From IMG/VR virus record IMGVR_UViG_3300028833_003470, positions 1 to 25,117 of that record: a stretch of DNA of 25,117 bases. One strand, 5' to 3'. Source of the stretch: a virus. A model generated the notes under the pieces. The model had not been told where the DNA came from. It did no database searches and saw nothing but the letters and a program-made list of their open reading frames with translations. Position 1 is the first letter of the stretch. Every line of letters starts with the position of its first letter. Below, in pieces: positions 1 to 25,117 of this stretch. The position numbers were made by a program, and so were the translations under genes.

Positions 1-1
1 C

Positions 2-17
2 AGAAAACTTTATATAT
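2..17 (+). promoter_or_regulatory. Candidate archaeal promoter (purine-rich BRE followed by TATA box TTTATATA at 9-16)
   Basis: AGAAAAC-TTTATATAT matches the methanogen BRE/TATA consensus; it lies at the window edge, so upstream context is unknown. Confidence 0.5.
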
Positions 18-25
18 TATAGGTT

Positions 26-723
26 TCCTGAATGTACCAAGTTGTTGTCTTGTGCTTATTATGTGGGGGGTAGTTTTTATATGATATTTGTTAGTATTAT
101 ATAAAAACTGGGGGTTTTGGGGTATTGAATATTACTGTTTTTTCAATATAAGCTATTTTTTTATTATTTGTGGTTGTCTTTTTCGATGTGCAATACTTTT
201 CTTTTCGTACACTTTACACTTGAAATTGTACTTTAAGGGAGCATTGGTATGTTTTGGGGCATATAGAGTACCATACAAGTGTAGATTAAATCTACACCAT
301 TTTTCGTGTTGAGTAAATTACCCCTTTTGTTGCATTTTTTACCCTTTTTGTTGCAGATTTTCGGTAAATGTTGAGTAAATTTGGTGTAATGTTGAGCATA
401 TCGATGGATTGAAAATGATGGTATGGTGCTTATTTTCTTGTTTGGAGTATGAAAACCGATATGCAAGGTTTGACTATCGCTATTTTTCGGCAGAAACTTA
501 ATTTTTTTTTCGGAAAAATTTTTAGTATTTGGGGGGGGTATTGAAGATTCTAGTTTTTGAAAACATAACTTTCATAAGTATCATAAATTTTTTTTATGTT
601 TCTTATGTTTTTTGTCAGATGTTTTGATTATCTCTGATTTTTTGTTTTTGCAGATTTTTTTTGTTCGTTAGATACCTAACAATAGTGTGGTTATCCTGAA
701 TGTACCAACTTACTGTCTTGTGC
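26..723 (+). repeat. 30-bp imperfect direct repeat, copies at 26-55 and 694-723
   Basis: TCCTGAATGTACCAAgttgtTGTCTTGTGC vs TCCTGAATGTACCAActtacTGTCTTGTGC, 27/30 identical, both preceded by GGTT. Confidence 0.9.
307..398 (+). repeat. Cluster of short direct repeats in the non-coding left end
   Basis: TGTTGAGTAAATT at 307-319 and 369-381, partial TGTTGAG at 390-396; near-tandem ACCC(C/T)TTTTGTTGCA at 320-334 and 341-356. Confidence 0.8.
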
Positions 724-774
724 GATGATTGATTACTATAAATTTTTTAGGGTTATTATTTTTTCACCGATGAC

Positions 775-850
775 CCCCCCATCATAATCATTTTATCATC
801 TCCCAATATATCCCCCCACCACACATACACCCTATTATTTTGATGGGGGG
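775..850. repeat. 10-bp perfect inverted repeat upstream of the first gene
   Basis: CCCCCCATCA (775-784) and TGATGGGGGG (841-850) are exact reverse complements. Confidence 0.8.
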
Positions 851-883
851 CGAGGGAGAATATAATTTTTTGGAGAGTGCAGA

Positions 884-1102
884 ATGGATAAAGGAAGATT
901 AACAACATTAATCAGCGATTTAGGACTGATACTAGTCGCTATTGCAACCTTGCTTGGCATTAGTCTTGATCCTAACTTGGCAACTGCGATAGTGAGTGCA
1001 GTAGTATTGATTATTATCGCATTACTGGATGTTTACCATCCTGAATACAAGGACATAATTGATAATATTGATGATTCAGAGGAGTTGGATGGAGAAGAGT
1101 AG
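884..1102 (+). CDS. Holin-like small membrane protein (72 aa)
   Basis: Two hydrophobic helices (LGLILVAIATLLGI; LATAIVSAVVLIIIALL) and a highly charged C-terminus; GGAG RBS at 872-875. Holin function is inferred from topology. Confidence 0.6.
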   Translation: MDKGRLTTLISDLGLILVAIATLLGISLDPNLATAIVSAVVLIIIALLDVYHPEYKDIIDNIDDSEELDGEE

Positions 1103-1436
1103 TCCGACTTTTTATGACCATCTTGACTTGAATAATCGTGTAACCAAACTGGAATCAGAGAACAAGACACTCTTCAATGAGATAAGGGAAATCAAGGATG
1201 CTTTAGGTGAGAATACTGATGCTTTGAATAATCTGAACAGTACCTTGAATGAGGAGCGAGTCAATAATACCAAGGCGATTAACGAGTTAACTACCTTGTT
1301 GCACGAGGAGAAGTTAAGGGTCGAGTTGATGAATGAGAAAGAATCCACCGAACTGGGCATCAGGAGTACTATTTATACTGGTGTCATTGTGGGTGTTGCC
1401 TTGTTGATTGTTGAGGGATTATTGAGGATATTGTGA
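1089..1436 (+). CDS. Coiled-coil protein with C-terminal TM anchor (XhlA/holin-accessory-like)
   Basis: Heptad-rich body (RVTKLESENKTLFNEIREIKDAL...) and C-terminal hydrophobic helix IYTGVIVGVALLIVEGLL. ATG 1089 follows AGGAG and is preferred over the track start at 1059. Confidence 0.6.
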   Translation: MEKSSPTFYDHLDLNNRVTKLESENKTLFNEIREIKDALGENTDALNNLNSTLNEERVNNTKAINELTTLLHEEKLRVELMNEKESTELGIRSTIYTGVIVGVALLIVEGLLRIL

Positions 1437-1909
1437 TTTTTATGACTGATGATGATAATAAGATTGAAGAGAGGAATATGGTTCAGGGGAAGAAGCCCCC
1501 ATTATTCATTAAAGAGCCTATCCTTAAGCAGAAGCTTTTGTCTATGATTGAAAAGGGCAATTATATTAGTACTAGTTGTGAGGCTTGTGGTATTAATCCA
1601 TCTACTTTGACTTATTGGAGAACCAAGGCTAGAGAGGGTAAAGAGCCTTATGTTAGTTTTTTTGCAGAGTTGCGAGAAGCCGAGAGAAAGGCTGAAACTG
1701 TTATAGCAGAGGGAATCTATGATATCGGTTTCGATAAGAGGAATTGGACTGCCCTTGCTTGGTTATTAGAGAGGAAGAACCCTGAAAGATGGGGTAGGAA
1801 AGACAGAGTTGATGTCGCTTCTGATAAGGAGTTTAAGATTGAGATTACTAGTACTAAATCCGAGCATAAGATGAGTGAAGAGGATAGGAAGAACCTAGAA
1901 GAGGAATAG
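1433..1909 (+). CDS. terS: Terminase small subunit
   Basis: HTH-like segment (ISTSCEACGINPSTLTYW) and AWLLERKNPERWGRKD motif typical of TerS; immediately upstream of terL. Start may be ATG 1442. Confidence 0.8.
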   Translation: MIFMTDDDNKIEERNMVQGKKPPLFIKEPILKQKLLSMIEKGNYISTSCEACGINPSTLTYWRTKAREGKEPYVSFFAELREAERKAETVIAEGIYDIGFDKRNWTALAWLLERKNPERWGRKDRVDVASDKEFKIEITSTKSEHKMSEEDRKNLEEE

Positions 1910-1910
1910 T

Positions 1911-3128
1911 ATGCCAACAGTTGAGTGGAAGTTGAGTGAGAAACAAGCCGAGTATTTGTATGATAAGCATAGGTATTTGGTTGTTGAGGGTAGTGCTGGA
2001 TCTGGAAAAACCCTGTTTGCTTGTCATAAGGTTTTATTGTATGCTTTCACTCATAAGAATGCGAAGATTGGTGTTTTTAGGTTGACTTTACCGAGCCTTA
2101 AGCAGACTGCTTGGTTGGAGATTAGGCAATTGTTGGATAAGTATGATTTGCCTTATCAGGAGAATAAGACCGAGGGTGTTATGACTTTCCCTAATGGTAC
2201 AACCATCATATTCAGGGCTTTAGACGATATGAGGAAAATTCGTAGTCTTAACCTTGATCTAGTCTATGTGGAGCAATGTGAGGAAATTGATAAGGATATC
2301 TTTATGGAGTTGGATTCAAGGGTAAGAGGACAAGCTAGTATTGATGATTATGGTCAATTATTGCTTGTTGTTACTCCTGAAATGCAATCTCATTGGATTT
2401 ATAAAAGATTTCATAAGATTGAGGATGAGGATGCTTGTGTTGTCCATTTCCATTATACAGAGAATCCTTTTGTTGATGATAAGTATATCAAGATGGCAGA
2501 GGATAGGAAGAAGTTTGATTATGATACTTATGCACGATTAACACTTGGTAAATGGGGCTTGGTTGGTGATATTATTTATCAGAACTGGGATATCAAGGAA
2601 TCCAGTAGAGGTTTCGAGTATTATACTGGTGGTTCTGATTTTGGTTTCAACAACCCAAGTTGTTTCTTATTGGTTGGTTGGTTGGATAATGAGGCTTATG
2701 TTATTGATGAGGTTTACGAGCGAAACCTTATAAATTACCAGTTTATTGGCAAGGTTAATGAGATGTTGAAGAGGAATAATCTTAACCCAAGCAACCTTGA
2801 TACTGTTTATGGTGATAAGGCAGAGCCTGACCGAATCCAAGAATTTAATGAATATGGTTACAATATGGTTGGTGGAATCAAGGATGTTAATGCGAAGATC
2901 AATGCCACCAAATCAGTTAAAATCCACATAAGCCCAAAGTGTGTGAATACTATTAAGGAGATTGAGAATTACTGCTATCAAAGGGATAAGGATGGCAATG
3001 CTATTGATAAGCCAATAAAATACAATGACCACAGTATGGATGCATTGGGTTATTGTGTTTATGGTACTGTTGGAATCTTAAGCCCTGAACGAAGTATGCC
3101 TGAAAAGGCTACAATCTATGGATACTAA
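1911..3128 (+). CDS. terL: Terminase large subunit (PBSX/Terminase_3-like)
   Basis: Walker A GSAGSGKT, Walker B-like LVYVEQCEE, HW motif, LGKW linker, and RNase-H-like nuclease acidic motifs SDFGFNNP, GDKAEP, NDHSMDAL. Confidence 0.95.
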   Translation: MPTVEWKLSEKQAEYLYDKHRYLVVEGSAGSGKTLFACHKVLLYAFTHKNAKIGVFRLTLPSLKQTAWLEIRQLLDKYDLPYQENKTEGVMTFPNGTTIIFRALDDMRKIRSLNLDLVYVEQCEEIDKDIFMELDSRVRGQASIDDYGQLLLVVTPEMQSHWIYKRFHKIEDEDACVVHFHYTENPFVDDKYIKMAEDRKKFDYDTYARLTLGKWGLVGDIIYQNWDIKESSRGFEYYTGGSDFGFNNPSCFLLVGWLDNEAYVIDEVYERNLINYQFIGKVNEMLKRNNLNPSNLDTVYGDKAEPDRIQEFNEYGYNMVGGIKDVNAKINATKSVKIHISPKCVNTIKEIENYCYQRDKDGNAIDKPIKYNDHSMDALGYCVYGTVGILSPERSMPEKATIYGY

Positions 3129-3146
3129 ATGGAGAGATGAATATAT

Positions 3147-4469
3147 ATGGGAATTTTTGATAGGATATATGGGTTCAGACAACGAGAGGTTCGCAACAGT
3201 TATCCTAACGAGGTCAGATTGGCTGATATAAGTGCTAAAGAACCTGATAATCCAAGTGGGAAAGACCTTTACGAGATAACCCCATCTCATATTAATAGGA
3301 CAGTAAGGAACTGCCGATATGCCACACGAGATCCACAAGTACACGGTGTACTGTTGGATATTATGGTGAAATCCAACACTCATTTCGAGATAATTGGGGA
3401 TAATGAACAAGCAGTAAACCATATCAAGAAGATGGATGAGGATTACTGGAATATTAATAAGATTATTGATGAGATGTTTTGGAAAGGGGCAGTTGATGGT
3501 CAAGCCTTTATGAACCTGCGAATCAAGGAGAATCATATATGTCCACGATGGCTTGAATGGGATGGAGAATCCTATAATATTATGGAGATATATGACTCTG
3601 ATGAGGAATTATTAGGTTACAAGCAAGTTATTCAGAAGAATGCGAAGACTAATAATGGTTGGCTTCGCAGGAAATTCGATGAGTTGAAGAACGAATCCTC
3701 CGAGGAGGTTGAGATAAACTTTGAACCATCCGAGGTAATTCATATGAAATACCTTGAGAGGGATGGAATAGGTCATAGTCTTGTAGTGAATGTACTTGAT
3801 GATGTGATGTACAAGAGGAAGCTCAAGGAACTTATGACTTTGACTGTTTATAAGAATAGTAATCTTGTTGTTGTTACTATGGGTAACGAAGACAAGATGA
3901 ACACTTACCTTGATGAGGATGCACGAAATATGGTAGTGGAAACTGTATCCGACTTCGACCATAAAGGTGCAGTAGTAGTGCCATATGGAATAGGTCTTGA
4001 AGTGCTTAAGGGTGGAACATTACCTGAAATCCAAGACTACCTCAAATACTATGAGAGATGCATTTATGTAGGATTGAACACTCCTGAAGCTGTATTCAAC
4101 TCCGAATCAAGTAACAGAGCAACAGCCGACATCCAACTTGACAGTAAGACAAGTGGTAGAATACTCTTCTTCCAATACAATCAAGAATGGGTTACCAAGT
4201 ATATTGAAGAACTGTTCAGAAGAGAACTTGAACTTCAAGGCATAAGTGGATATGTGACTATTGAATTCGAGAACCTCACAGAAGATGAAGATGGGGATGA
4301 GAATTCTGATGATACTGATCCTGAAAGCTTACACAAGCCAATAACAAAGAAAGGTCAAGAGGATATTGACAAGACTGGCACTACTGGGATAAAGAAAACC
4401 AGTACGAACTCTGATAATGTTCATAATGATGTTAAGAATCGAAGTCAAACGAATACTGCAGGAGGTTGA
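3147..4469 (+). CDS. Portal protein
   Basis: 440 aa directly after terL; helical core with SNRATADIQ-type stem motif and a disordered acidic C-terminal tail; GGAG RBS at about 3131. Confidence 0.85.
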   Translation: MGIFDRIYGFRQREVRNSYPNEVRLADISAKEPDNPSGKDLYEITPSHINRTVRNCRYATRDPQVHGVLLDIMVKSNTHFEIIGDNEQAVNHIKKMDEDYWNINKIIDEMFWKGAVDGQAFMNLRIKENHICPRWLEWDGESYNIMEIYDSDEELLGYKQVIQKNAKTNNGWLRRKFDELKNESSEEVEINFEPSEVIHMKYLERDGIGHSLVVNVLDDVMYKRKLKELMTLTVYKNSNLVVVTMGNEDKMNTYLDEDARNMVVETVSDFDHKGAVVVPYGIGLEVLKGGTLPEIQDYLKYYERCIYVGLNTPEAVFNSESSNRATADIQLDSKTSGRILFFQYNQEWVTKYIEELFRRELELQGISGYVTIEFENLTEDEDGDENSDDTDPESLHKPITKKGQEDIDKTGTTGIKKTSTNSDNVHNDVKNRSQTNTAGG

Positions 4470-4474
4470 AGTGA

Positions 4475-5266
4475 ATGGTTAGTGATGGATTAAAACATCT
4501 TATCAAGACTCCTGCTGATTTAACTGATGAGGTTTTTGATTTCAAGAACCTTGACTCTGATGAACAAGCCTACATCATCGCTTTATTATTTTATTATAAT
4601 GATTTTGCCTTGAAGTATCAGGGCAAGACAAGAGCATATATTGAATCTCATTACGAGGATGATATTGATGCCTTGCAAGAGAAACTCCTTAAGGCTAATG
4701 AGAAACAATTCGAGAAGATGTTTGAAACTTTCAAGAGAAAACAACTTGAGAATGATAAGAACCTCCCAAGTAGCAAGTATGGTAAGGTTACTTGGAAAGG
4801 CTTCAATAAGGCAAGTATGAGCAAGAAACTCACATTCGAGGTTGTTACTCAAAGCATTAAGGACATCTGCTCTGAATTGAAGAGAGAAATAGGTTTGCAA
4901 TTGAAAGTCCACGAAGACATCAATTATAAGGCTTCTGACTTCTCAATCAAGGCGAAACTTGACAAGGGAGCGAAGAAGCTTAAAAAGGCAGGGAAGTTTA
5001 CTGCAGGTAGATTAAGGCAGAAGACAGAACGAGCCTACCAAGACTTCCAAAACAAGCCACAAACCCTCTACAAATGGCAATGCTCATATGTAAGGAATGT
5101 GCCTTGTGCTTGGTGCGAATACCAACAATTACAACCACCAAGACCAATCGATGACTGGGAATATGACCACCCAAATGGACATTGCACACTAGTACCAATA
5201 AATGGAACAGAAGCCTATTCCGATGATTATCTTGCAATAGCAGAATTCCTTGATGAGGAAGATTGA
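4475..5266 (+). CDS. Head morphogenesis/minor head protein (Mu gpF / SPP1 gp7-like)
   Basis: Follows the portal; C-terminal YKW..CAWC...HPNGHC matches the family CxxC...HPNCRC motif. Confidence 0.8.
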   Translation: MVSDGLKHLIKTPADLTDEVFDFKNLDSDEQAYIIALLFYYNDFALKYQGKTRAYIESHYEDDIDALQEKLLKANEKQFEKMFETFKRKQLENDKNLPSSKYGKVTWKGFNKASMSKKLTFEVVTQSIKDICSELKREIGLQLKVHEDINYKASDFSIKAKLDKGAKKLKKAGKFTAGRLRQKTERAYQDFQNKPQTLYKWQCSYVRNVPCAWCEYQQLQPPRPIDDWEYDHPNGHCTLVPINGTEAYSDDYLAIAEFLDEED

Positions 5267-6132
5267 TATTTATGAAATTTATTAACCTTTTTGGAGTTGG
5301 TACAGTTGATTATGCTGATGAGGGATTCGACAAGCCAGTAAGGTTCAGTAGTGAAACCCTCAAATATCTAGCCGAAAACCTAGGCGAAACCAAACTCACA
5401 AGAGAACATACAGATGAGAATATTGGATCATACAATAATTTCCGATTCAAAGATGATTTCCTCCAAGTCGAAGTACCTGATGATTTCGAGGGTGGATTAT
5501 CACCAGTATTCCAAGCAGATTGGAATCTTGTTGGAGATTACTATGAACCAGTACCGAATAGTTTACGAATGACCAGTATTGGATTAACAAATAATCCACG
5601 AACTGGAATAATCTACAACAGTAATAAGGGAGATGATACTGTGGATGATAATAAATTCAATGACTTGTTAACTAGGAAAGATGAGAGAATCACCGAACAG
5701 CAAGAAGAGATAGCAATACTACGAAAACAGTATGAAGAATTACAAGATAAATTTAATGATTCCAGTAAAGAATCCAAGGAGTTACAAGCAAAGATAAAAG
5801 AATTAACAAACTTGGAAACCGAACTGGAATCTTACAAAGCCGATGCAGAAAAGTACAGAGTACAAGAAGCTGAAGCGAGGGCTGAACTCATCACACAAAT
5901 TGCAGGTGATGATGAAAAAGCCAAAGAAATCTTCAAAGACACTAGTGTTGAGGATTTAAAGTATATGCTTGAGCAGAAAACAGTAACCGAACCTCCAAAG
6001 GGTGCGACTACTAATAATGCTCAAGGGAATGTGCAAGATGGTTCTGAACCACCTGCAAGTAAAGTGAATGAGGATGATAAATACACTTATGAGGCTTTCA
6101 AGGAATGGGAAGACTCATTAGATGAATGGTAG
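5263..6132 (+). CDS. Prohead protease fused to a scaffolding domain
   Basis: N-terminal EHTDENIG (His) and SIGLTNNPR (Ser) resemble Mu gpI/HK97-type protease motifs; the C-terminal half is a charged coiled coil. Start may be ATG 5272. Confidence 0.75.
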   Translation: MIFMKFINLFGVGTVDYADEGFDKPVRFSSETLKYLAENLGETKLTREHTDENIGSYNNFRFKDDFLQVEVPDDFEGGLSPVFQADWNLVGDYYEPVPNSLRMTSIGLTNNPRTGIIYNSNKGDDTVDDNKFNDLLTRKDERITEQQEEIAILRKQYEELQDKFNDSSKESKELQAKIKELTNLETELESYKADAEKYRVQEAEARAELITQIAGDDEKAKEIFKDTSVEDLKYMLEQKTVTEPPKGATTNNAQGNVQDGSEPPASKVNEDDKYTYEAFKEWEDSLDEW

Positions 6133-6176
6133 TCCTCAAATGAAAAACAACTAATATATATTATGGAGAATAGAGA

Positions 6177-6737
6177 ATGACCGAAAATACATTAGGAACT
6201 TTCTATGACAAAGAACAAGGTAAAACCTACGAAGTCAACGAGGGCGATGTAACTGTCGCAGAGGGCTACAGTACCTTAAATGCAAGTAAACAGAAATTCA
6301 TCTCCTTTGAAAACCCAGTAGGTGCAGAGAACTTTTTAGAATTTGATTTCAGCGATGACTTATTAGTCAAGGGTGCAACTACCAAAGCAACCCACATCAC
6401 AATGTACGAGCCTGAATTCCCATATGGAAAACTCCCACAAGAAGATGTTGAAGATGGAAGCTACAGAAGATTCGTAACTGCATTCGAGTTAAAAGTAGGA
6501 GAAGTACAATTACCACTTTCCGATACTAACTCTGCAATCGCAAAAGGTAATGGATTAAAGATTACTGATTACCATACTGGATTGGACAAGCATACTAATG
6601 ACTCCGAAATCGTAGCACTTGAATCCAAACCTGCAAATAGTGGTGGATACATCATCGCATACCTCAAAGTACCATACTTGACTGTTGGTGGAGCATCAGC
6701 CTCTTCTAGTGGTAGTGGATCAGGTAGTGGATCATAA
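6177..6737 (+). CDS. Probable capsid decoration/cement protein
   Basis: 186-aa beta-rich protein between scaffold and MCP, a common decoration-gene position; GGAG RBS; ends in a Gly/Ser tail. Confidence 0.55.
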   Translation: MTENTLGTFYDKEQGKTYEVNEGDVTVAEGYSTLNASKQKFISFENPVGAENFLEFDFSDDLLVKGATTKATHITMYEPEFPYGKLPQEDVEDGSYRRFVTAFELKVGEVQLPLSDTNSAIAKGNGLKITDYHTGLDKHTNDSEIVALESKPANSGGYIIAYLKVPYLTVGGASASSSGSGSGSGS

Positions 6738-6788
6738 TTACAAACTTAACTTTTTCAATTATTAAACTTATAATGGAGAATCACAATA

Positions 6789-7748
6789 ATGGCTAACGAA
6801 AATCAATTACAAAAAGTGGATGGAGCATACCATAGTGGATACTATACTGCTAAAATCAGAAAAGATGTAGCAAAAGAATTCAAGATGGCAGGACTCTTCC
6901 CAACCCAAAAAGTATCTGATAAGAACATCACAGTAACTGATGTAAACACTTATGATGAGATTGAAGACCAAGTAAAAGGCAGAAAGAAAAAACTGGAAGC
7001 AAAAGGAACTAGTCTTCGTAAAATCAGAGCAAGAGTAGTCACCCCAGAGGGTTTCAGACTTGAGCAATATGGTATCGAAATGGATATCGAACAGAGAGAT
7101 TTGCTTGAACAAAGAATATCCATTACTGATGTTATGAAACCAGTAACCAAGTACCTTGCACAAGAAATCGACAACAATGTATACCAATCTGCAGTTTCCT
7201 ATGCTACTGATGAAAGCACCAATTATGGATTAACCAACAACTGGACTAACTCCGAAATCGAGGACATCCTCCACGATATCATCACCATCAAAAACAAGAA
7301 ACTGGAAGAGGGTTACGATATCAACCACATAATGCTTGGTATGGATGCAAAAACCAAACTTGACATCTTAAGTGCATCCAAAGACATTGTAACCTCCAAA
7401 TACATCTTCGGACACAACAACTTCGAGTTAGACAACACCATCACCCTGAATGATATGGTATTCAGTTGGGGTGGAAAAACAATGGATGGTAAAGAATTAT
7501 TAGCATTCTGTACCGATGCACCTGCACTTGAAATCTTCTACCTTGACTTCTTCAACCCTAATGTGCAAAGAGTACCATCTATTGGTCAATATGAAAAATA
7601 TGCACCATTAATCAATGTCTTGAAGTACGATAATGCTAAAGAAGAACACGAACCTATCATCAAGATGAAATTCGCTACTGCAGTAGGTACTTACCCATTA
7701 GAAAAAGGTAAGAGAATGCTTAAAGTACCTAATGTAATGGGTAACTAA
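6789..7748 (+). CDS. Major capsid protein (HK97 fold expected)
   Basis: 319 aa at the expected position; GGAG RBS at about 6775; E-loop/P-domain-like pattern (LAQEIDNNVYQSA; YDINHIMLG). Confidence 0.85.
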   Translation: MANENQLQKVDGAYHSGYYTAKIRKDVAKEFKMAGLFPTQKVSDKNITVTDVNTYDEIEDQVKGRKKKLEAKGTSLRKIRARVVTPEGFRLEQYGIEMDIEQRDLLEQRISITDVMKPVTKYLAQEIDNNVYQSAVSYATDESTNYGLTNNWTNSEIEDILHDIITIKNKKLEEGYDINHIMLGMDAKTKLDILSASKDIVTSKYIFGHNNFELDNTITLNDMVFSWGGKTMDGKELLAFCTDAPALEIFYLDFFNPNVQRVPSIGQYEKYAPLINVLKYDNAKEEHEPIIKMKFATAVGTYPLEKGKRMLKVPNVMGN

Positions 7749-7778
7749 ACCTGATAATACTTTTTAAGGAGATATTCA

Positions 7779-8774
7779 ATGGAAAACAAGATGGAAGACT
7801 ATTATAAAGTAATGCAATATCTCCGAGAAATGTTCGTAGACAGACAATATCCTTATGAGTTTGAAGATGAGGAACTGTTGGGTTCTGATTCTTCAATATC
7901 TCTTGTTGATTCCGAGTATGGTGACTTCGAGAAAAGCCTACAATTGGAAAGTATCAAGAGTGGTGATGTACTCCGAATGACATTACCCAAACCAAGAGAT
8001 TTCACCGATTGCACAAGCTTTGAAGTCAGTTTCTATTGTAGTGAGGAGTTTGATCCACAGAACCTTGTCATTGGTTTCAGTAATAAGAAGAAAGGCTACA
8101 TTAATCAAGTCGAGCTTGATAGTGGCAATATTATTGAGGCTGAAACCTACTTGAACAAGGGTGGGCATTACCTCATCAAATACAACCTAAAGGATACTAA
8201 TACCAAGATGGCTAAAAAGGATAGAAGATTATCCCATACCGAGTCAATTAATCTGATATTTGGGCAGGAAGTTAATGAGTTAATCCTTTATGATGCAGTT
8301 TTACGAACTGCTAATAATCATATTACCCTTGAGGACTTGGATGAAACAATATTGATGGGTACATATTATATTCAAAACCAATTATTATTGGAAGATGCAG
8401 AAGATATTCCATTGCCATTGCAACACTTGAATTATAAATCTGCAGGTGCTTACACTTGGTTGATATGGTGGGAGAACGAGAGCAAAGTTATGGATGATGC
8501 CACTAAAGAGGGCAGAAACTATGCCACAAGACTTTTCGACCAAATCGACCTCTTCCTACAAAAATGGTTAGAAGCTCACCCAACTGGAAACACCGACCCA
8601 AATATGAAACTCTTGGGATTCACAACCTACCAAGACTTCCCAATCAAACGAAGAATCCACGAAATAGGAAACAACCAAATCTATGTCTATGACCCTGAAG
8701 ACCTACGAAACTATAATACAATGAGATTAGTCATCAGTAACCGACTTGACTTATTAGGTGCAAAAGGAGGATAA
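7779..8774 (+). CDS. Head-tail adaptor-like protein with an inserted beta-sandwich domain
   Basis: First gene after MCP; helical C-terminal part (TLEDLDETI...YATRLFDQIDLFLQKW) resembles gp36/gp6-type adaptors; aa ~35-177 are beta-rich; AGGAG RBS. Confidence 0.6.
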   Translation: MENKMEDYYKVMQYLREMFVDRQYPYEFEDEELLGSDSSISLVDSEYGDFEKSLQLESIKSGDVLRMTLPKPRDFTDCTSFEVSFYCSEEFDPQNLVIGFSNKKKGYINQVELDSGNIIEAETYLNKGGHYLIKYNLKDTNTKMAKKDRRLSHTESINLIFGQEVNELILYDAVLRTANNHITLEDLDETILMGTYYIQNQLLLEDAEDIPLPLQHLNYKSAGAYTWLIWWENESKVMDDATKEGRNYATRLFDQIDLFLQKWLEAHPTGNTDPNMKLLGFTTYQDFPIKRRIHEIGNNQIYVYDPEDLRNYNTMRLVISNRLDLLGAKGG

Positions 8775-11352: not shown

Positions 11353-11674
11353 GGATATTGAAGAGGAAGAGGATGATGATGGTTTTCTCCATTACCCAAG
11401 TGACACATTAGAAGAGATATTATTAAATAAGTATTTCCTACTAGTTAAGCGAGTAGAGGGGATAGGATTATCCTTGAATGATTTTTGGGAAATGGATACA
11501 AAACAATTCAACCTACTCTACAACAACGAACTGGAAATAATCCAAGCCGAACAAAAAGAAATAGAAAAACACGAACTAGCAAACAGAAGTAAAAGCACTA
11601 AAGGAAAAATGGTAACCACAAAAGGAACAGACAACCCTGAAATGAGCGATGCATACGAAAGCCTAATGAAGTGA
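11342..11674 (+). CDS. Tail chaperone gpT-like extension (likely translated as a gpGT fusion)
   Basis: Open from 11231 but without a convincing RBS/start; the segment after the gpG stop has a gpT-like pattern (LSLNDFWEMDTKQFNLL). Confidence 0.65.
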   Translation, partial: RESKDIEEEEDDDGFLHYPSDTLEEILLNKYFLLVKRVEGIGLSLNDFWEMDTKQFNLLYNNELEIIQAEQKEIEKHELANRSKSTKGKMVTTKGTDNPEMSDAYESLMK

Positions 11675-11679
11675 ACAAT

Positions 11680-12141
11680 ATGAAAGCAAAATTCATACTA
11701 AACCCCATCGAATTCCAAAAAAAACTAGAAACCTACAAAGACAATGTACGAGCAAAAGCAGAATCAGAAATAAGAGCAACAATGTTCGACCCAGTCATAG
11801 AAACAAGTATACCCTATGCACCTGAAAGAGAGGGAGGTTTCATAGAAGAAATGGAAATATTCAATGGAGTAAGGAGATCAGGCAAAGACAGATTTATGAC
11901 AAGAATCATAATCGACCCTGAAAATGAAGAATGGAATGACCTCTACGAGATGCCTGAATATATGGTATTAGATAAGAAATACCCTTACCTTAAAGACCTC
12001 AACACAGAGGGAAGATATGGGCTTCATGCTTACTACAACTCCTTTAGTGGAACAAGTGCTTTCTTCAGGGTAAGTATGCCAAAAGCTATGAAAACTGTTT
12101 ACGAGAATATTGGAAAATTTGTTGTTAGGGGAGGATTATAA
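11680..12141 (+). CDS. HK97 gp10-like / virion morphogenesis (tail completion) protein, tentative
   Basis: N-terminal helical pattern (EFQKKLETYKDNVRAKAE), AP-x-x-x-G motif (YAPEREGG) and C-terminal FF..MP.AM..V..I resemble the gp10 family. GTG 11671 is an alternative start. Confidence 0.5.
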   Translation: MKAKFILNPIEFQKKLETYKDNVRAKAESEIRATMFDPVIETSIPYAPEREGGFIEEMEIFNGVRRSGKDRFMTRIIIDPENEEWNDLYEMPEYMVLDKKYPYLKDLNTEGRYGLHAYYNSFSGTSAFFRVSMPKAMKTVYENIGKFVVRGGL

Positions 12142-16809: not shown

Positions 16810-16828
16810 TTTTCCCTTTTAATTTTTT
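16810..16828 (+). terminator. Oligo-T tract after the tape measure gene (archaeal-type terminator candidate)
   Basis: TTTTCCCTTTTTAATTTTTT directly after the stop codon. Confidence 0.35.
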
Positions 16829-16857
16829 AAGATAATAATATAATGAGGTTATTGAGT

Positions 16858-17487
16858 ATGGCAGATTTTTACAATTTTACATTCCAACCGAACTTTCACA
16901 TTTGGAGAGATTTCAATGTTAAGTTTAATTGTCAGCAGATGAATTGGACTGATACTGATAATGATAGTGTGATGGATATTGGTGAGAGAGCAGGTTTCAG
17001 ATTAATCTTGGCATCTAGTCTTTCCAATGTTGATATGGAGATTACTAAAGAGAGTGATATTGGCGATGATAGTATTATTAATTATGATGGGTACTTGAAT
17101 GCTGATGGTGAGCATATGACTAGTCTTGCTTTTGAGGGTCTTCGAGAGGAGGTTACTGATGAGAATAGTGAGGTTGAGTTTAAGTATTATTACAAGCCGA
17201 TTTATTTGGATTTCCACGAGAATGATGGTGGTTTTATTATTACTGTTGCAGGTACATCCAATGAGGGCGAGAATATTATTAGTGACAATACCGACATCAC
17301 CCTTTCTATGCTTGGTGATAGTCCTCAAGACCTAGAAGCCATCTTTATTGGAACTGATGAGTCTAATCCTTATATCATCGCTTATGCAAAGGCTACTAAT
17401 AAGGTTAAAGTTAGGGATGTTTTATCTATTCCATTAGACACACAAATCCTATCTGTGGGTGTTGATGAGTACGATGAATATCAATAA
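16858..17487 (+). CDS. Acidic tail-associated hypothetical protein
   Basis: Beta-rich, strongly acidic ORF between TMP and the giant tail gene. ATG 16858 follows GAGGT and is preferred over 16843. Confidence 0.7.
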   Translation: MADFYNFTFQPNFHIWRDFNVKFNCQQMNWTDTDNDSVMDIGERAGFRLILASSLSNVDMEITKESDIGDDSIINYDGYLNADGEHMTSLAFEGLREEVTDENSEVEFKYYYKPIYLDFHENDGGFIITVAGTSNEGENIISDNTDITLSMLGDSPQDLEAIFIGTDESNPYIIAYAKATNKVKVRDVLSIPLDTQILSVGVDEYDEYQ

Positions 17488-17506
17488 TACTGGGGTTGGA
17501 TAATTT

Positions 17507-20500
17507 ATGAGTTATCAAACAATCGAACCAGTTAGTGTGAAACAATCTGATGAGAATCGTTTGTGGTATAATCTTGCTACTCTTGTGCCTCAAGATACTG
17601 TCTACGATAATACTACAGAATTGGTGCAGACAAGGAGTGGTTATGCCGAGTGCATCTTGAATGGTTTCTATTACGATGAGAACAAGCCTAATAGTTTGAC
17701 CTTTGATTTCGGAAGTACCGAGATAACCGATACCACTAATATCAATAATGTCAGATTCTATTTCAGAATGTATGTTATTGGTGATGGTAGGACTAATATG
17801 GTTTCACAGACTCCGAAGCCGAATGTGAAGCTTTGGACTCATCTTGACCCTGATAGGACTTATGATTGGCACGATAGTGATGAGTATTTGAAGCTTGTTG
17901 ATGAGATGGATCATAATTATTATGTTGATGCCGAGGCTAGTTATTTGAATGATAATTATGATAGTGGTTATACTGATTTTACTGTTACTTTTAATAATAT
18001 TAGTATGGGTAATGTCTTGTCTTCTAGTTTCTTCAATAATGGGTTCGGTATTAGTTTGGAGTTTCCTCCGAGCAAGTGTATGGTTGAGCATCGTGTTATC
18101 TTTGAGAGTGTTTATTGTGTATTGAATTATGGCACTGATGGTGGAATGACTGTTACTTGTGATAATGAGGAAACTTATACTGTTAATACACTTAACACTA
18201 TTCAATTCACTATCGTTGAAGATACTGATGTTGACAGTAGGATCAGTTTTGAGGCTGATGGTGATGGATTATATATTAACCCTTACAATAATGTGGGGGT
18301 TGAGAATGGTCACCCTTTGAGTACTGATGACCCTTATAAATTTGCAGAGGTGCAGACTTATGGTGGTAATACTGTTGTTGTTACTTTGCATTTTGTTCCG
18401 ACAAAGGTTGGTGATTGTAGTTTCAAGGTTACTGTTAATGAGGAGTTGACTCCGAGAGTATTCAATTTTACTGTTGTTGGTAATGATGAGGATACTTATT
18501 ATCCAGTTTATGATTTTGAAGAGAACACATTAACATTTTATGGTGATTTCACAAGTGATACCGAGGCTTATGTTCAAGATGGAACAATAAGGTACAAGGA
18601 TGTGAAAAGCATCAAAGCAGAAGCCTTATTACCAAATTACATTATCGTTAATGGAGAACAACACTCTAATGACCCTAATGATTTTATCTTCAGAGTTACT
18701 GTGGAATTATGGAATAATGTTGATGGAACAGTTAACTATGATGGACATCCTATCTCATTTACTGGTTCATTCACAGAAACCCTCATAACTGAAACAGTAT
18801 CTTCTGATTCAGTAGTTGTAACTACAGAGGATGATGAGAGAGAAATACCTATTGACTTATCCACTATAACTAAAACTGGTACATATAATAATGATACTGG
18901 AGCAATGACTGGTGCTACTGTTTTCACAGAGAGTTATCAGGAAGTTCATTCTTATACTCCAAGCTTAAACCTTTATGATAGTTTATTGAAGATTCATAAC
19001 ATTGGCACTACTGATGCTCAAGGAATAACCACACCATTATTCAGTATTGGTAATGTTGAAGTGTATAGGAAGTATTCAAGTGGAAATTATAGATTGTTAG
19101 ACCCTCATTTTTATTCATTATCTGTAAGTGATGGTGAGTTATTATTGAAGACTTTTGAGGGCAGATACTATGATGATGGGGAATCCCCTGATAGCACTAT
19201 CCAAGATATCAAAACATACAATAAGGATTATCACGATAAGGTAGTAGTCCACATAACACCTTTAAGGAACGAATACAACTTCCAATTAACTAGTCAAGGA
19301 ATGAGCAACACCACACAAAAAACCAACACCTACTACCAACTCATATCCCCAAACAAATATACTGTTGGCTCTGTCTTGAACCTCCTACCTGCAACTGCTT
19401 ATATGCAAGAGAGGACAAAAGTCACAATTGAAAACTTTGAAACTGGTGAGAATGATATAATCCATTACTATGCTTATATCAAGGATGGAGTTCAAATCAA
19501 TAAATCTGATGCCTTGAACGAGGATGGCACACTTAAAGAGGGAGTGACTTTTGAGGAAGTGACAGAAGATGAAGCTTATATTACTTATTACTGGTTTAAT
19601 AATACTGCTTTCTCTGAAGAAGAAGTACTAACTCTGATAAGTGACTTTGAAGACTGTACTCTTGGACTTGACCCAAGCCAATACGAGAACTTGGGAACTA
19701 CTAATGTTCGTATGATGAGATTGATGAGAACAACAATCATACCAAAATACGAGTCTGTTCTTTCATTGGATTTCAGTAAATGCCACTTCATACTCAAAAA
19801 ACCACAAAATGATATCAGAGTAGAACTGCCAGTACCTTACATTGGAGCAGTTAGATTGCATCGTTGCCACAAGGCTGATGTGACAAACACAACCACCAAC
19901 AGCCTAATCCGAGAAGTCTACCAAAACAGACAATACTATGGTAAAAAAGGTGACTGGGAAGAAAAAATCACAATGACACTTCGTATGCCTTGGCAAGACA
20001 TCGTAACCCTACAAGGACACACAAGAGCAGATATGCCAATCCCAATCGACATCAACCCATTACACCCTGATGGTGACCCACTCAACCATAGAGGATGGGC
20101 AGAGATAAGCAGTACTGGAGAAATCACAAAAATTAATGATATGCTCTACCAATGCAAACCTGAAGTCACTTATTTGACTCACGAGCTTATTGGAAGATTT
20201 GCTATTACTCAAGATCCTGATAGAATCTGTAATCAAGACCCTCCAATCAATATGCTTAAAACCCACGAGTATTGGGAGGATGACAGAGAAGTCCTAGACT
20301 TATCAAGTTACTTGAATTTCCATAATATGCCAATCGGCGATGGAATGTTCAAAGGAGTATACACAGTAGCAGATGATAATGAATATGTCTTTGATTTGAA
20401 AGGAACTGTTTCCAGTATTGGTAGATATAATTGGAGATGGAGAAACATATTACCTGCATTGGGTACTACTGCTCACGATGATAATCGTTGGCAGACTGCT

Positions 20501-23500
20501 ATCAGAGTATTGGGTGCATCTGATGATTCCCTGCTCTTCGAGTACTTGTATAAGGATTTCAAACACTATGATGGAGATAACTTGCTTAACGAGTCAGATG
20601 TAAGAGTACTGCACAAGAACCCAGTAACTGGACTCTTGGACACTATCGATTACACCCATATGAACCTTGACTTCGATGAAGTTGGAGCAGAAGTCAGTAT
20701 TGACAAGACAAACACTTACATTGAGATTCCAAAACAAGACCAAACACTATTTGAGAAAGGTAGAAACCTCTACTTCACCTTGAGAGATAGCAGAGGATAT
20801 GGAATACCAAACAAGGATGTTGATGTTAATATTATAAATAATCACGATGAGGTAATATATTCAATCCCTGCCTTGACTGATGTGAATGGTAATCGTGATG
20901 TTGAGCTTAATCTTGAAAGTGGAGATTATACTGCTCAATTATTGTTTAGTGGTGATGATAAGTACAATCCTTGTTCAATCGAGTATTACTTTACTGTTGA
21001 CCTTGTATACAGACAAGGAACAGAACTTGCTATATACAATGAGTATGGTGGATATGGATATGACATCAACAACGAGTACATCGAGGGAAGATTACTAACA
21101 GATGATGACCGACCAATAGCAGGTGAAAAAGTCTATGTAAGCATCTACCAATACACCCCAACAACCCTCAAAGTCAATGGAAAAAGAAAAACCTTTAATT
21201 TCAAAACAACAATATCTTCAGAAGTAGAATGCACAACAAGTGCTAGAGGATGGTTCAAGGCAAAAGTAAACCTATTAGGTGTTCAAGCAGGAACATTTAC
21301 TGCCGAGGCTGTCTACAAGGGAACTGATTATTATCAGAAAAACAGTTATAGCAGAACTTTTACTATGCACCAATGGTACAAGCATAAGACTTCCATTACT
21401 ACTAGCGACCAAAAATACGAGCAAGGTAAGGAATACAATTTCGTAGCAACCCTCAAAGACCATAAAGGAAAACCAATCAAAGGAGAAACACTACGATTCG
21501 GTATCCACAATTACCAAACTGGTATCAACCAAAGATTCGCAATCAAGACAGATAAGAATGGTCAAGCAAAGATTCCAGTAATGTTCAATAGTGGAAACCA
21601 TCAAATAGACACCTACTACAATGGTAGCAGTAGGTATGAGTACAGCCCTGCAAGAAACACCAACAAGATAACCACTTATGCAAAGGGAAAGGAAACCACC
21701 ACTATAACTGCATATATGATGCATATAGTGGATTATGTGAATGATGAGTACAATGCTTGGTTGAAAGACAGTAGTGGCAAGGGAATCCCTAATGTTCCAA
21801 TCACTTTTGAGATATACGAATTCATTAGAAGCTCCGAGAAAGCAGATGCAGATGGAACTTATAGTGGTAAGAAAGGAGCATTGAAAGAAAGAGGACAAAG
21901 ATTAACCGATGCGAGTGGTCAAGCAGAATGGAACATCAACCTACCTACTGGAGATTATATGGGTTATGCCTATTACGAGGGTGATAACAAGTATGCTCCA
22001 TCAAGTAGGGGAAGAGCAATCCTCATCAGCCGACCACCAACAACTCACAATCTTGACATAACATTCCCACAAGCAAGTGGTGGAACAATACAAGTAACAC
22101 GAGATGAGCAGACTGGTGACCTATCACCAATCATCATACAGTTAACTGCTACTCCGAAGAGTGGTGGAGCAAGTATAAATCCAAAAGGAATCGATGGAAA
22201 AATCACCTACACAAACCTCTCTACTGGAAAACAATACGATGGATCATTAGTGAACACAACAATCACAAGTGATGCAAATGGTCAGATAACAATCTACCCT
22301 ACTCTTGAGAAAGGCAACTATCGTATGAATATTGAAACCTATGGAGCTTCAATCGATAAGAACCACGATGGTGTGTTTGAAACAGTATTCGCAGGTAAGG
22401 AGTCAAGTGTTCAATTGAATGTGACTAATGACTGCTATATGGATACCCTTATTGATGTTGTTGAGGCTAATGATAATGTTGTGGATGTTCGTAAGGATAG
22501 TAGCGAACCTATAAGGATTTTGCTTAAGGGTATTGATGAGGCTACTGGAGAACCTTTCCTTATTCCGAACAAGAGAGTGAGTGTTCAATATGCTTATACT
22601 TACAATAATAAGACAATCACTTCAAGTAAAGAATACTTCACAACCGATGAGAATGGATTAATCAATTACACTAGGAAAATCGGTTATACTGGAACATTAA
22701 CAATCAGTTATAGTGGAGATATCGGTTATGACAGTTGCTTGAAAACAATAACTGTAAGTGTACACGATAAGAGCCAGTATATTCCACATTTCAGTTACAA
22801 GATGAACACCGACACCATAAGGTATGAAGCATTGCCTTTAAACATCAGAAGCTTCTATAAAAATGGTGACACCAAGTACCCTACTTCAAATACACGAGTG
22901 AGGATTCAAGTTACTCATAGCAACCCACTAGTTTATAATAAAAGTTTCACTAGATACACAGATGGCAATGGTTATATTGATATTAATCTTGTTTTCCCTG
23001 AAAATGGAAAATACACTATCAACTTGTATGCTATCAAGGAAGTGGATAATGTAACATCAGAGGTTCTTGTCAAGACTTTGCCAACTGTTAATGTGGATGG
23101 TGCAAACAAGGGTACAGATACAGAGCCAGTAGAATACTTGCCTAACAAGTTACCTACTACTCTTGAATTCGTAAGCCCTGACAAATCTGTTGGTGGATTA
23201 GTCAAAGAACCAATCCAACATACTGTGACTAGATTCCCATACCTACTCAAAGCAAAGGTCAGTTACTTCGATGAGGGAGTAAAAAGAGTACTGCCAAACC
23301 ACAGATGCAGAATATACTTCACACTCACAAATGGAGTGATTGAAGAGTATCAGCGATATACTGATACTGATGGAATAATGACATATGAAAGTCTTCCATT
23401 GAGTTATGGAGAATACCCAGTAACCATCGAGGTAGAAACTGATGACACCTATGCAACAAGCAACATCAACACAGTATTAATCGTTACCGAAGAAGCCGAG

Positions 23501-25117
23501 AAAAGCTTCGATAGTCCATCCCCTGCAAAAGCACACTTGCAGAAGAAGAAAGGACAAGTAACACCACTTGAAACACCACTTGTAGAAACTTATGATGGTA
23601 TTGAGTATGGATCAACTGCCGAGATGACATTCAATGGAAACTTGCTTGATTTCCAAGATTATGGGTTAACACAGAACACTAGTCTTGTTGGAGCAAAGAT
23701 ATCATTAACTGATATTGAGTTACCTAAAGATGAGAAAGGCTACAAACTACAATTCCTTACACGATACAATAATGATGTTGACAACACAGTAGATGAACTA
23801 CTAGGCACATTGCAAGTTGAAATAACAGATGACAAAATAAGCAAACTGTACCAACAATTCTATGAGAACCTAGTTGTATCCCCTGCTCCATTGTACAACC
23901 ATAAACTGATGTTCACTAGAGAGGCTGAAGATGGAACATTATATTACTATGATGTAACCAGTAACATTGATGTGAAACGATACAGACTTTCTCCATTCCT
24001 ACAATACAAGGGTGGAGTAAACCTAGAAACTGCATCAGGGGTAAGCATCTTCGACCTAGAAACTGGAGTAAGCCCAGTTATCATCAATAATGGATTAATC
24101 AAGGCAGAATTCAACAAGAGAAGTGGATTCGTAAGAGTAGCAAGATACGATGACAGAACAAAAACTTGGAACTGGGTCAGATGGCTACAAGTCGAGGAAA
24201 ACTTCTACAAGATGGAATTACTCCATTACTCAACCGATAAGATAAGCTTGAAAATGGGCAACACCACTTGGACTGTATGGAGAGGCAGACCTTGGATAGA
24301 AATCAAACACGAAGATGATGACATCAGGATCATCGGAGAAACCAACAAGACCTATGCAGAAATCCTCCATAACGATACAAGGTATCAGATAATGAGTGAA
24401 GTGGATACTCACAATGGAATATTCAATACCTACAATGCAATCAATTACTTCGGTAAGGAATTGAATATCACAGAGAATATTAAAAGGGATAACTTCACAA
24501 TTACTGGTGCAACTGCATCTACTCCAATTGACATCAGCCTTATCGGTGAAACTTGTCTTAAGGTGGATGCTAATAGTGATGAGTATCATATCAAGCTTCC
24601 TCAAGTACAAAGACCATCAGATGATATCTTCACATTCCTTATCGATAGATTGAAGATGGATAATGTTGATAATATCAAGATTACCTGCAATGCTTATGAT
24701 ACCAAGGGTGGAGAGTTTGTAGCAAGTGCTTACAAGGAATTTGATGTTGAAACTACTGGCGATGAAACTGTTACTGATTTAGTTTCAGATGGCAGATTGA
24801 ATACTGGTTTCAGGTCAGTATTCGACTTATCAGATTTCAAAGACAAGGACAATAATTCAATAAAGGAAACCACTTACTGGCATAATAATGAACAAGTAAG
24901 TAAAGAAGATGCATATGTCACCATAATTGATGAGGAAGATGGCACTACATACACAGAACTTAAGGAAAATATCGAGATTAAGGAAACTTTCGGTGCGAAG
25001 TATGAGAAGTGTAATTTCCTAGAATTTGACATTGAATTGCATAAGACAGTTAGTAGTAATAACAGTTATGCGATAATCAATCACCTGATGTTGTCCGATG
25101 GTGATAACAGACTAGGT
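17507..25117 (+). CDS. Giant multidomain tail-tip/adhesin protein, at least 2537 aa, 3'-truncated by the window
   Basis: Read by hand from ATG 17507 (MSYQTIEPVSVKQSDENRLWYN...) to the last base (...LSDGDNRLG) with no in-frame stop. Absent from the ORF track, presumably because no stop lies in the window. Confidence 0.9.
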   Translation, partial: MSYQTIEPVSVKQSDENRLWYNLATLVPQDTVYDNTTELVQTRSGYAECILNGFYYDENKPNSLTFDFGSTEITDTTNINNVRFYFRMYVIGDGRTNMVSQTPKPNVKLWTHLDPDRTYDWHDSDEYLKLVDEMDHNYYVDAEASYLNDNYDSGYTDFTVTFNNISMGNVLSSSFFNNGFGISLEFPPSKCMVEHRVIFESVYCVLNYGTDGGMTVTCDNEETYTVNTLNTIQFTIVEDTDVDSRISFEADGDGLYINPYNNVGVENGHPLSTDDPYKFAEVQTYGGNTVVVTLHFVPTKVGDCSFKVTVNEELTPRVFNFTVVGNDEDTYYPVYDFEENTLTFYGDFTSDTEAYVQDGTIRYKDVKSIKAEALLPNYIIVNGEQHSNDPNDFIFRVTVELWNNVDGTVNYDGHPISFTGSFTETLITETVSSDSVVVTTEDDEREIPIDLSTITKTGTYNNDTGAMTGATVFTESYQEVHSYTPSLNLYDSLLKIHNIGTTDAQGITTPLFSIGNVEVYRKYSSGNYRLLDPHFYSLSVSDGELLLKTFEGRYYDDGESPDSTIQDIKTYNKDYHDKVVVHITPLRNEYNFQLTSQGMSNTTQKTNTYYQLISPNKYTVGSVLNLLPATAYMQERTKVTIENFETGENDIIHYYAYIKDGVQINKSDALNEDGTLKEGVTFEEVTEDEAYITYYWFNNTAFSEEEVLTLISDFEDCTLGLDPSQYENLGTTNVRMMRLMRTTIIPKYESVLSLDFSKCHFILKKPQNDIRVELPVPYIGAVRLHRCHKADVTNTTTNSLIREVYQNRQYYGKKGDWEEKITMTLRMPWQDIVTLQGHTRADMPIPIDINPLHPDGDPLNHRGWAEISSTGEITKINDMLYQCKPEVTYLTHELIGRFAITQDPDRICNQDPPINMLKTHEYWEDDREVLDLSSYLNFHNMPIGDGMFKGVYTVADDNEYVFDLKGTVSSIGRYNWRWRNILPALGTTAHDDNRWQTAIRVLGASDDSLLFEYLYKDFKHYDGDNLLNESDVRVLHKNPVTGLLDTIDYTHMNLDFDEVGAEVSIDKTNTYIEIPKQDQTLFEKGRNLYFTLRDSRGYGIPNKDVDVNIINNHDEVIYSIPALTDVNGNRDVELNLESGDYTAQLLFSGDDKYNPCSIEYYFTVDLVYRQGTELAIYNEYGGYGYDINNEYIEGRLLTDDDRPIAGEKVYVSIYQYTPTTLKVNGKRKTFNFKTTISSEVECTTSARGWFKAKVNLLGVQAGTFTAEAVYKGTDYYQKNSYSRTFTMHQWYKHKTSITTSDQKYEQGKEYNFVATLKDHKGKPIKGETLRFGIHNYQTGINQRFAIKTDKNGQAKIPVMFNSGNHQIDTYYNGSSRYEYSPARNTNKITTYAKGKETTTITAYMMHIVDYVNDEYNAWLKDSSGKGIPNVPITFEIYEFIRSSEKADADGTYSGKKGALKERGQRLTDASGQAEWNINLPTGDYMGYAYYEGDNKYAPSSRGRAILISRPPTTHNLDITFPQASGGTIQVTRDEQTGDLSPIIIQLTATPKSGGASINPKGIDGKITYTNLSTGKQYDGSLVNTTITSDANGQITIYPTLEKGNYRMNIETYGASIDKNHDGVFETVFAGKESSVQLNVTNDCYMDTLIDVVEANDNVVDVRKDSSEPIRILLKGIDEATGEPFLIPNKRVSVQYAYTYNNKTITSSKEYFTTDENGLINYTRKIGYTGTLTISYSGDIGYDSCLKTITVSVHDKSQYIPHFSYKMNTDTIRYEALPLNIRSFYKNGDTKYPTSNTRVRIQVTHSNPLVYNKSFTRYTDGNGYIDINLVFPENGKYTINLYAIKEVDNVTSEVLVKTLPTVNVDGANKGTDTEPVEYLPNKLPTTLEFVSPDKSVGGLVKEPIQHTVTRFPYLLKAKVSYFDEGVKRVLPNHRCRIYFTLTNGVIEEYQRYTDTDGIMTYESLPLSYGEYPVTIEVETDDTYATSNINTVLIVTEEAEKSFDSPSPAKAHLQKKKGQVTPLETPLVETYDGIEYGSTAEMTFNGNLLDFQDYGLTQNTSLVGAKISLTDIELPKDEKGYKLQFLTRYNNDVDNTVDELLGTLQVEITDDKISKLYQQFYENLVVSPAPLYNHKLMFTREAEDGTLYYYDVTSNIDVKRYRLSPFLQYKGGVNLETASGVSIFDLETGVSPVIINNGLIKAEFNKRSGFVRVARYDDRTKTWNWVRWLQVEENFYKMELLHYSTDKISLKMGNTTWTVWRGRPWIEIKHEDDDIRIIGETNKTYAEILHNDTRYQIMSEVDTHNGIFNTYNAINYFGKELNITENIKRDNFTITGATASTPIDISLIGETCLKVDANSDEYHIKLPQVQRPSDDIFTFLIDRLKMDNVDNIKITCNAYDTKGGEFVASAYKEFDVETTGDETVTDLVSDGRLNTGFRSVFDLSDFKDKDNNSIKETTYWHNNEQVSKEDAYVTIIDEEDGTTYTELKENIEIKETFGAKYEKCNFLEFDIELHKTVSSNNSYAIINHLMLSDGDNRLG
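20702..23490 (+). repeat. About 8 tandem degenerate Ig-like repeats (~100-130 aa each)
   Basis: Recurring T-x-I/L ... L(K/R)D..G..I ... TD.NG ... G.Y ... Y.G...Y motif, e.g. LKDHKGKPIKG..TDKNGQA..GNHQIDTYYNGSSRY and LKDSSGKGIPN..TDASGQA..GDYMGYAYYEGDNKY. Confidence 0.8.

Follow-up and report, generated by a model that had tools for sequence, protein, structure and literature searches.

Gelfand and Koonin reportedly described palindrome avoidance in 1997. Enzymes that require two head-to-head sites are unable to cut DNA in which all sites point in one direction, and Meisel et al. are said to have found in 1992 that the Type III sites of phage T7 for EcoP15I all lie in one orientation, by which T7 escapes. 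Restriction-site avoidance is now seen as widespread in double-stranded DNA viruses of prokaryotes, where it concerns mostly orthodox Type II sites and is strongest in nontemperate viruses (Rusinov et al. 2018, PMC6286503). The same study discusses strand-asymmetric avoidance and notes that Type III sites are very rarely seen to be avoided (PMC6286503). Here we analyzed positions 1-25117 of IMG/VR virus record IMGVR_UViG_3300028833_003470 (the window hereafter; 25,117 nucleotides, 37.7% G+C), which very probably represents the half of a tailed-virus genome that carries the structural genes, the host being Methanobrevibacter, a pseudomurein-walled methanogen. About 30 short word classes of the restriction-site type are purged from the lineage of this window, some two dozen of them without CG, and the losses that do involve CG leave this dinucleotide almost exclusively as TCG or CGA.

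The window contains 366 CG dinucleotides (observed/expected ratio of 0.42), and an exact count found 365 of them with a T directly before or an A directly after. They are distributed over ACGA (84), CCGA (93), GCGA (50), TCGA (63), TCGC (26), TCGG (19), and TCGT (30). A single ACGG is the only representative of VCGB, i.e., of CG with neither a T before it nor an A behind it, while ACGT, CCGG, GCGC, CCGC, GCGG, ACGC, GCGT, and CCGT each have a count of zero. A preliminary description of this DNA had already reported the rule, its sole exception, and the missing tetramers, all of which were confirmed; it had estimated the total at roughly 300 CG. It had also put the share of VCGB expected with independent flanks at 40-45%, in agreement with the 44% that we computed from first-order flanks. 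To obtain a stricter expectation, synonymous codons were shuffled within genes so that proteins and codon usage were kept. The 500 shuffles gave 183.4 ± 9.8 VCGB, with a minimum of 152, versus 1 observed, and a second run gave 183.7 ± 10.2, placing the depletion far beyond what codon usage can produce. Furthermore, the rule was obeyed with the C in codon position 1 (65 CG), 2 (43), or 3 (236) as well as between genes (22). The arginine codons CGT and CGC stand exclusively behind a codon ending in T, and the codons GCG, CCG, and ACG are invariably followed by A. As no codon phase breaks the rule and intergenic DNA obeys it too, codon usage is not its source and was ruled out as the cause; the depletion acts on DNA words. 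It is independent of reading frame and affects both strands, palindromes and both orientations of asymmetric words being gone alike.

Under the same null, CG of the TCG or CGA type remain near expectation (114 versus 130 for the ACGA class, 112 versus 99 for the CCGA class, and 76 versus 71 for the GCGA class), with TCGA slightly low (63 versus 106). Measured against base composition, the ratio for TCG-type CG is 0.74-0.78 in the lineage (0.78 in the window) and that for VCGB is 0.00-0.02. Since the TCG and CGA types are near expectation, the CG deficit of the window amounts to the loss of specific words. TG (1.29) and CA (1.16) are over-represented. Two Methanobrevibacter viruses, vir249 and vir075, have overall CG ratios of 0.37 and 0.42, but their NCGN classes are lowered evenly and VCGB makes up 36% and 47% of their CG, respectively. 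That temperate Methanobrevibacter viruses share the overall ratio of the window lineage may be a coincidence. The IMG/VR contig L040 also shows an even deficit over the NCGN classes, with a ratio of approximately 0.4, like vir075 and vir249.

The purge extends well beyond CG. In the window, with counts given as observed/expected from the codon-preserving shuffle and both orientations summed, the palindromic or degenerate words GGCC (0/17), CATG (1/48), CTNAG (0/76.9), GGNNCC (0/30), and CASTG (1/41) are lost or nearly so, as are the asymmetric words GTCTC/GAGAC (0/32) and CCTTC/GAAGG (0/50.7). GGNCC, CCNGG, and GCNGC have no occurrence, and GATC is depleted (24/70). Additional CG-containing words are affected as well, namely, GACG/CGTC (1/65), CCCG/CGGG (0/12), ACGAC/GTCGT (0/15), and TTCGAA (0/16), so that several longer words that include TCG on one strand are purged (GACGA with one copy left, CCCGA with none, ACGAC, TTCGAA, and CGATC). 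The complete genome of a close relative, G001, lacks 35 of the 64 six-base palindromes, 21 of these 35 with at least three sites expected, and retains GATC solely as GGATCA/TGATCC, AGATCA/TGATCT, and AGATCC/GGATCT. All four palindromic NGATCN hexamers and every CGATC are absent from the same genome. The genus Methanobrevibacter is rich in restriction-modification (R-M) systems, and a REBASE-based review table lists GGNCC, CCCGC, CCTTC, GATC, and GGATG as methyltransferase specificities for it (PMC11033074). Four of these five predicted Type II specificities are purged or depleted here, GGATG being the exception.

The loss of words has altered the encoded proteins. Certain dipeptides force a purged word whatever codons are chosen: Ala-Ala requires GCNGC, Gly-Pro requires GGNCC, and Pro-Gly requires CCNGG. 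Likewise, His-Val, His-Gly, and His-Ala can be encoded solely via CATG or via ACGT, ACGG, and ACGC, respectively. Among the 7,718 residues of the window, we counted no Ala-Ala (21 expected), no Gly-Pro (15 expected), no Pro-Gly (15 expected), no His-Val (7 expected), one His-Gly (8 expected), and one His-Ala (6 expected). The same dipeptides are lost from G001, G002, L030, L031, L038, and L039, whereas control viruses without the purge, such as vir075, have them at expected levels. The lone ACGG (Table 1) was kept because His-Gly requires either CAC-GGN, which creates ACGG, or CAT-GGN, which creates CATG, both of which are purged; in G001, four of the five ACGG also encode His-Gly. The lone CATG of the window reflects a forced conflict of the same type, His-Ala requiring CATG or ACGC. 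Selection is therefore strong enough to override protein sequence, and the removal of whole dipeptides is beyond the reach of biased mutation, for example through methylation and subsequent deamination. Met-Ile (3 versus 12 expected) and Pro-Met (1 versus 5) are low too, and no purged word accounts for them.

The pattern is not confined to one assembly. Close relatives with terminases 96-99% identical to that of the window were found in IMG/VR, and in at least seven other samples VCGB is near-absent as well, with 2-10 copies among 54-230 CG. The counts are 20 of 773 CG in G001 (L016-L018; a complete genome of 56,676 bp with direct terminal repeats and 89-95% nucleotide identity to the window) and 9 of 318 in G003, and in five further samples, short contigs carry between 2 and 8 VCGB apiece. 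An assembly or sequencing artefact was ruled out, as the pattern is the same in independent assemblies and in protein sequences. Eight of the 20 VCGB of G001 are clustered at positions 801-2312 (L016), within the first 2.3 kb and upstream of the region alignable to the window; this segment may be a recent acquisition.

Comparison with further relatives made it possible to follow VCGB as the union of six double-strand classes, namely, ACGT, CCGG, GCGC, ACGC/GCGT, ACGG/CCGT, and CCGC/GCGG. Most of these viruses are distant (G006, G008, G004, L030-L032, L036, L039, and L042, with terminase identities of 45-68%); G002 (L019-L020) is close, with 86% nucleotide identity to the window. All six classes are at or near zero in L030-L032. 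The 46.3 kb of G006 contain no site of five classes but 64 ACGG/CCGT spread over the genome, and L039 has five classes at or near zero with 30 CCGC/GCGG. Similarly, G008 (39.9 kb) avoids ACGT (0), GCGC (1), and CCGC/GCGG (1) while carrying 56 CCGG and 81 ACGG/CCGT. L036 and L042 have several classes at or near zero with ACGT free, and G004 avoids no class, all six being present. G002 has lost the three palindromes ACGT, CCGG, and GCGC completely but keeps 55 asymmetric VCGB. Non-CG words vary likewise, with CATG found once in the window versus 116 times in G006 and CTNAG 0 versus 40 times. Each of G006, G008, L039, G002, and G004 thus has its own combination of avoided words, and the six VCGB classes have been lost independently of one another.

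One word follows a different rule, as CGAG is locked to one strand. On the plus strand, CGAG outnumbers CTCG by 107 to 0 in the window, where the codon-preserving shuffle predicts 23.5 CTCG, by 195 to 0 in G001, and by 98 to 1 in G002. The genes of one block of G002 (approximately 9.4-12.5 kb) lie on the minus strand, and the plus strand there still has three CGAG and no CTCG. Because the rule is kept within this block, it tracks the DNA strand rather than the transcript, which rules out an explanation of the missing CTCG at the level of mRNA. The sister lineage L030-L032 has removed CGAG in both orientations. We know of no enzyme for CGAG, but the one-way arrangement suggests evasion of an enzyme that would require head-to-head sites. 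The motif CAGAAA, listed with a Type III system for Methanobrevibacter sp. YE315 (PMC11033074), occurs 16 times on the plus strand and not at all on the minus strand of the window (31 to 6 in G001), a skew for which the purine-rich coding strand accounts in part.

Several of these viruses encode DNA methyltransferases of their own. In G001 and G003, a C5-cytosine methyltransferase gene is split or frameshifted in the same manner (Table 1); the parts are separated by frameshifts, and in G001 the gap contains a run of approximately 13 G. This gene may be phase-variable, or it may be a decayed multispecific enzyme. G001 has one further methyltransferase-like open reading frame (ORF). G002 carries an extra, intact C5 enzyme and is also the one close relative in which the asymmetric VCGB classes are relaxed. 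An N6/N4 methyltransferase is encoded by G006, in which ACGG/CCGT is free. Relatives also encode a dCTP-deaminase-like enzyme, homologues of which were found in actinomycetes.

Taken as a whole, the pattern is best explained as extreme avoidance of many restriction sites, driven by a stack of separate R-M specificities, and we consider this explanation highly probable. Many different host R-M specificities would select their short recognition words out of the viral DNA. Six of them would be centered on CG, with the sites ACGT, CCGG, GCGC, ACGC/GCGT, ACGG/CCGT, and CCGC/GCGG; as these six classes sum exactly to VCGB, the only CG left to survive would be TCG or CGA. We infer that the agents are host R-M enzymes whose varied repertoire is spread over Methanobrevibacter strains. 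Several points weigh against such a stack. To our knowledge, no restriction enzyme has been described with a bare four-base ACGG/CCGT, ACGC/GCGT, GACG, or CCCG site. Virus methylases, such as the N6/N4 enzyme of G006, could explain some of the differences between viruses. Moreover, across more than 12 related viruses, purging is frequent for each of six NCGN classes but never affects the four that contain TCG. This exact split has a chance of approximately 1 in 80 to 1 in 210, judged post hoc, and is not predicted by a plain stack of R-M systems. A bolder version of the proposal would read the purged words as a negative imprint of the combined Methanobrevibacter R-M repertoire, including as yet undescribed bare four-base sites (ACGG/CCGT, ACGC/GCGT, GACG/CGTC, and CCCG/CGGG) as well as a system that would act on the four bases CGAG depending on their orientation, with the never-purged TCG classes reflecting a rejection of outer T shared by a family of CG-centered enzymes. 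We put this version forward only tentatively, as a possibility somewhat on the doubtful side.

The preliminary description had proposed either a single enzyme of VCGB specificity or a stack of CG-containing R-M systems, and of these two the stack held up, the classes being lost in different combinations. A single host nuclease or R-M system with the degenerate specificity VCGB, from which relatives would differ through virus methyltransferases that exempt particular classes, does account for the exact sum of the purged classes in the window, G001, and L030-L032. A homodimer that merely rejected an outer T would yield this degenerate palindrome. It also fits the presence of an N6/N4 methyltransferase in G006, which tolerates ACGG/CCGT alone, and of the additional intact C5 methyltransferase in G002, whose asymmetric classes are relaxed. 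However, under one enzyme the six classes should disappear and return jointly, and they do not in G006, L039, and G002. In addition, one methylase in G002 would need to shield three asymmetric classes yet none of the three palindromes. G008 tolerates CCGG and ACGG/CCGT, and a search for C5 or N4/N6 methylases returned none in the 69% of its genome that was available, none in L039 and L034, also incomplete genomes, and none in L041; coming from incomplete genomes, this result weakens the methylase rescue. The many purged non-CG words indicate, moreover, that these viruses do face many separate specificities, and we regard a single VCGB enzyme as highly improbable. The earlier remark that no standard four-cutter is known to have this specificity still stands, and none is needed under a stack of R-M systems.

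Two other explanations were weighed. All CG could be threatened, with an adjacent T giving protection through a TCG-acting virus methyltransferase or a modified thymidine, so that only the unprotectable VCGB would be purged. Every surviving CG does read as TCG on one strand or both, C5 methyltransferases and the dCTP-deaminase-like enzyme are encoded by relatives, and no four-base class with TCG is purged in any relative. Yet the longer TCG-containing words are purged (GACGA, CCCGA, ACGAC/GTCGT, TTCGAA, and CGATC, as counted above), which means that a T beside CG is not protective in itself. T-containing words such as CATG, CTNAG, GATC, and CCTTC have been removed as well, and the independent variation of the six classes is not expected if CG as such is threatened. 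On account of the same longer TCG words and other T-containing words, we consider thymidine hypermodification or methylation of TCG unlikely, and protection by T as a whole deserves very little credence. Alternatively, mutation rather than selection could be at work, with host C5-methylation of VCGB followed by deamination to TG or CA, a route that the preliminary description had also raised. The excess of TG and CA is in the expected direction, and of the 11 aligned sites at which VCGB is private to G002, five read TG in the window and G001. CA, however, stands at just one of these 11 sites, and transversions or changes at other positions make up half of the aligned differences. Deamination would lead to graded depletion with replacement by TG and CA and would spare sites that the proteins force, whereas we observed an all-or-none loss with mixed replacement states and purged forced dipeptides. 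One VCGB versus approximately 183 expected, with eight of the nine words at zero, is far under any mutational equilibrium, and deamination alone cannot hold VCGB at 1 of about 180 while TCG- and CGA-type CG stay near expectation. The temperate Methanobrevibacter viruses with the same CG deficit (0.37-0.42) lose all NCGN classes evenly, and the removal of whole dipeptides requires selection. The deamination route is thus not supported, and we give it next to no chance of being correct.

All long ORFs of the window lie on the plus strand in an order typical for the structural module of a tailed virus (terminase, portal, capsid genes, an ORF of tape-measure size, and a tail ORF; Table 1). In G001, too, the ORFs of at least 100 amino acids that are not nested in a longer plus-strand ORF are all on the plus strand. 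A megablast search of the whole window against GenBank phages gave no match, and a scan of genome contigs with the terminase returned only distant prophages of Lachnospiraceae. The best named match of the terminase is that of Caudoviricetes sp. vir249 (48% identity), whose recorded host belongs to the Methanobacteriales, and in a phage collection the portal protein matches those of Methanobacteriales viruses exclusively. G001 encodes a lysin of the C39 peptidase type that weakly matches the pseudomurein-binding repeat; its identity is 47-54% with C39 peptidases from named Methanobrevibacter genomes and 49% with the endolysin PeiR of the Methanobrevibacter gottschalkii virus vir075. These lysin, portal, and terminase matches make Methanobrevibacter the very probable host. 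With respect to lifestyle, the Pfam integrase model had no match in the complete G001 genome. An ORF of 396 amino acids after the lysin gene (L017:15400-16590), on which the Pfam model was silent, matches the PHROG integrase family phrog_1 (E 2.5e-8). Site avoidance in the integrase-bearing vir075 and vir249 is much weaker than in the lineage of the window.

Table 1. Coordinates of the features discussed, in the window unless a contig is named (aa, amino acids)
Feature	Position	Strand	Basis or remark
Large terminase subunit	1911-3128	+	Pfam Terminase_3 and Terminase_3C; query for finding relatives
Portal protein	3147-4469	+	tblastn of phage collection
Lone VCGB word, ACGG	3343-3346	+	Codons CAC-GGT (His-Gly) in portal gene; conserved in G001 and G002
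Capsid genes	Between portal gene and tape-measure-sized ORF	+	ORF order
Lone CATG	12025-12028	+	Codons CAT-GCT (His-Ala) in ORF 11671-12141
Tape-measure-sized ORF, 1554 aa	12145-16809	+	Size; same place as the vir249 tape measure gene; all-plus gene block
Giant ORF of the tail region, 2537 aa or longer, still open at window end	17507-25117	+	Obeys same CG rule; G001 orthologue has 2592 aa
Split C5-cytosine methyltransferase (G001)	L018:9395-10843		N-terminal part with motifs I-VIII; C-terminal part with target-recognition region and motifs IX-X; same layout in L024 (G003)
Extra intact C5 methyltransferase, 314 aa (G002)	L019:7369-8313		Aligned over full length to M.HhaI, E 1e-41

These observations suggest that restriction is a dominant barrier for viruses of gut methanogens, and through them the R-M repertoire of methanogens that are hard to culture could be read from the viruses that infect them. 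The list of avoided words should be useful in designing DNA for the transformation of Methanobrevibacter and in virus-based methane mitigation. The observations also illustrate how the CG deficit of a whole genome can break down into six discrete word losses. Our literature search found no earlier report of such a pattern in methanogen viruses, nor of the loss of dipeptides through site avoidance.

Set beside generalized CpG depletion, as known from vertebrate genomes and their viruses and from some low-G+C prokaryotes, the window has a similar overall CG ratio (0.42, close to the 0.42 of vir075 and the 0.37 of vir249), but its loss is all-or-none according to the flanking base (VCGB at 0.00, TCG-type CG at 0.78), whereas vir075 and vir249 have all classes lowered alike. 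The strand lock of CGAG resembles the case of T7 and EcoP15I in that an asymmetric word occurs in a single orientation irrespective of gene direction. It differs in that CGAG has four bases, fewer than the Type III or Type ISP sites described so far (5-7 bases), and in that the sister lineage has removed both orientations instead. The closest likeness is to restriction-site avoidance (PMC6286503), as palindromic and asymmetric words of the restriction type are eliminated or nearly so, mostly of the orthodox Type II kind, in a set that differs between related viruses. What sets this lineage apart is the scale, with about 30 word classes purged, all six VCGB classes among them, and 35 of the 64 six-base palindromes absent from 56.7 kb, together with the disappearance of site-forcing dipeptides from the proteome and an archaeal host. 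The phenomenon itself is therefore a known one, and this case of it is unusually complete and extreme and occurs in an archaeal virus.

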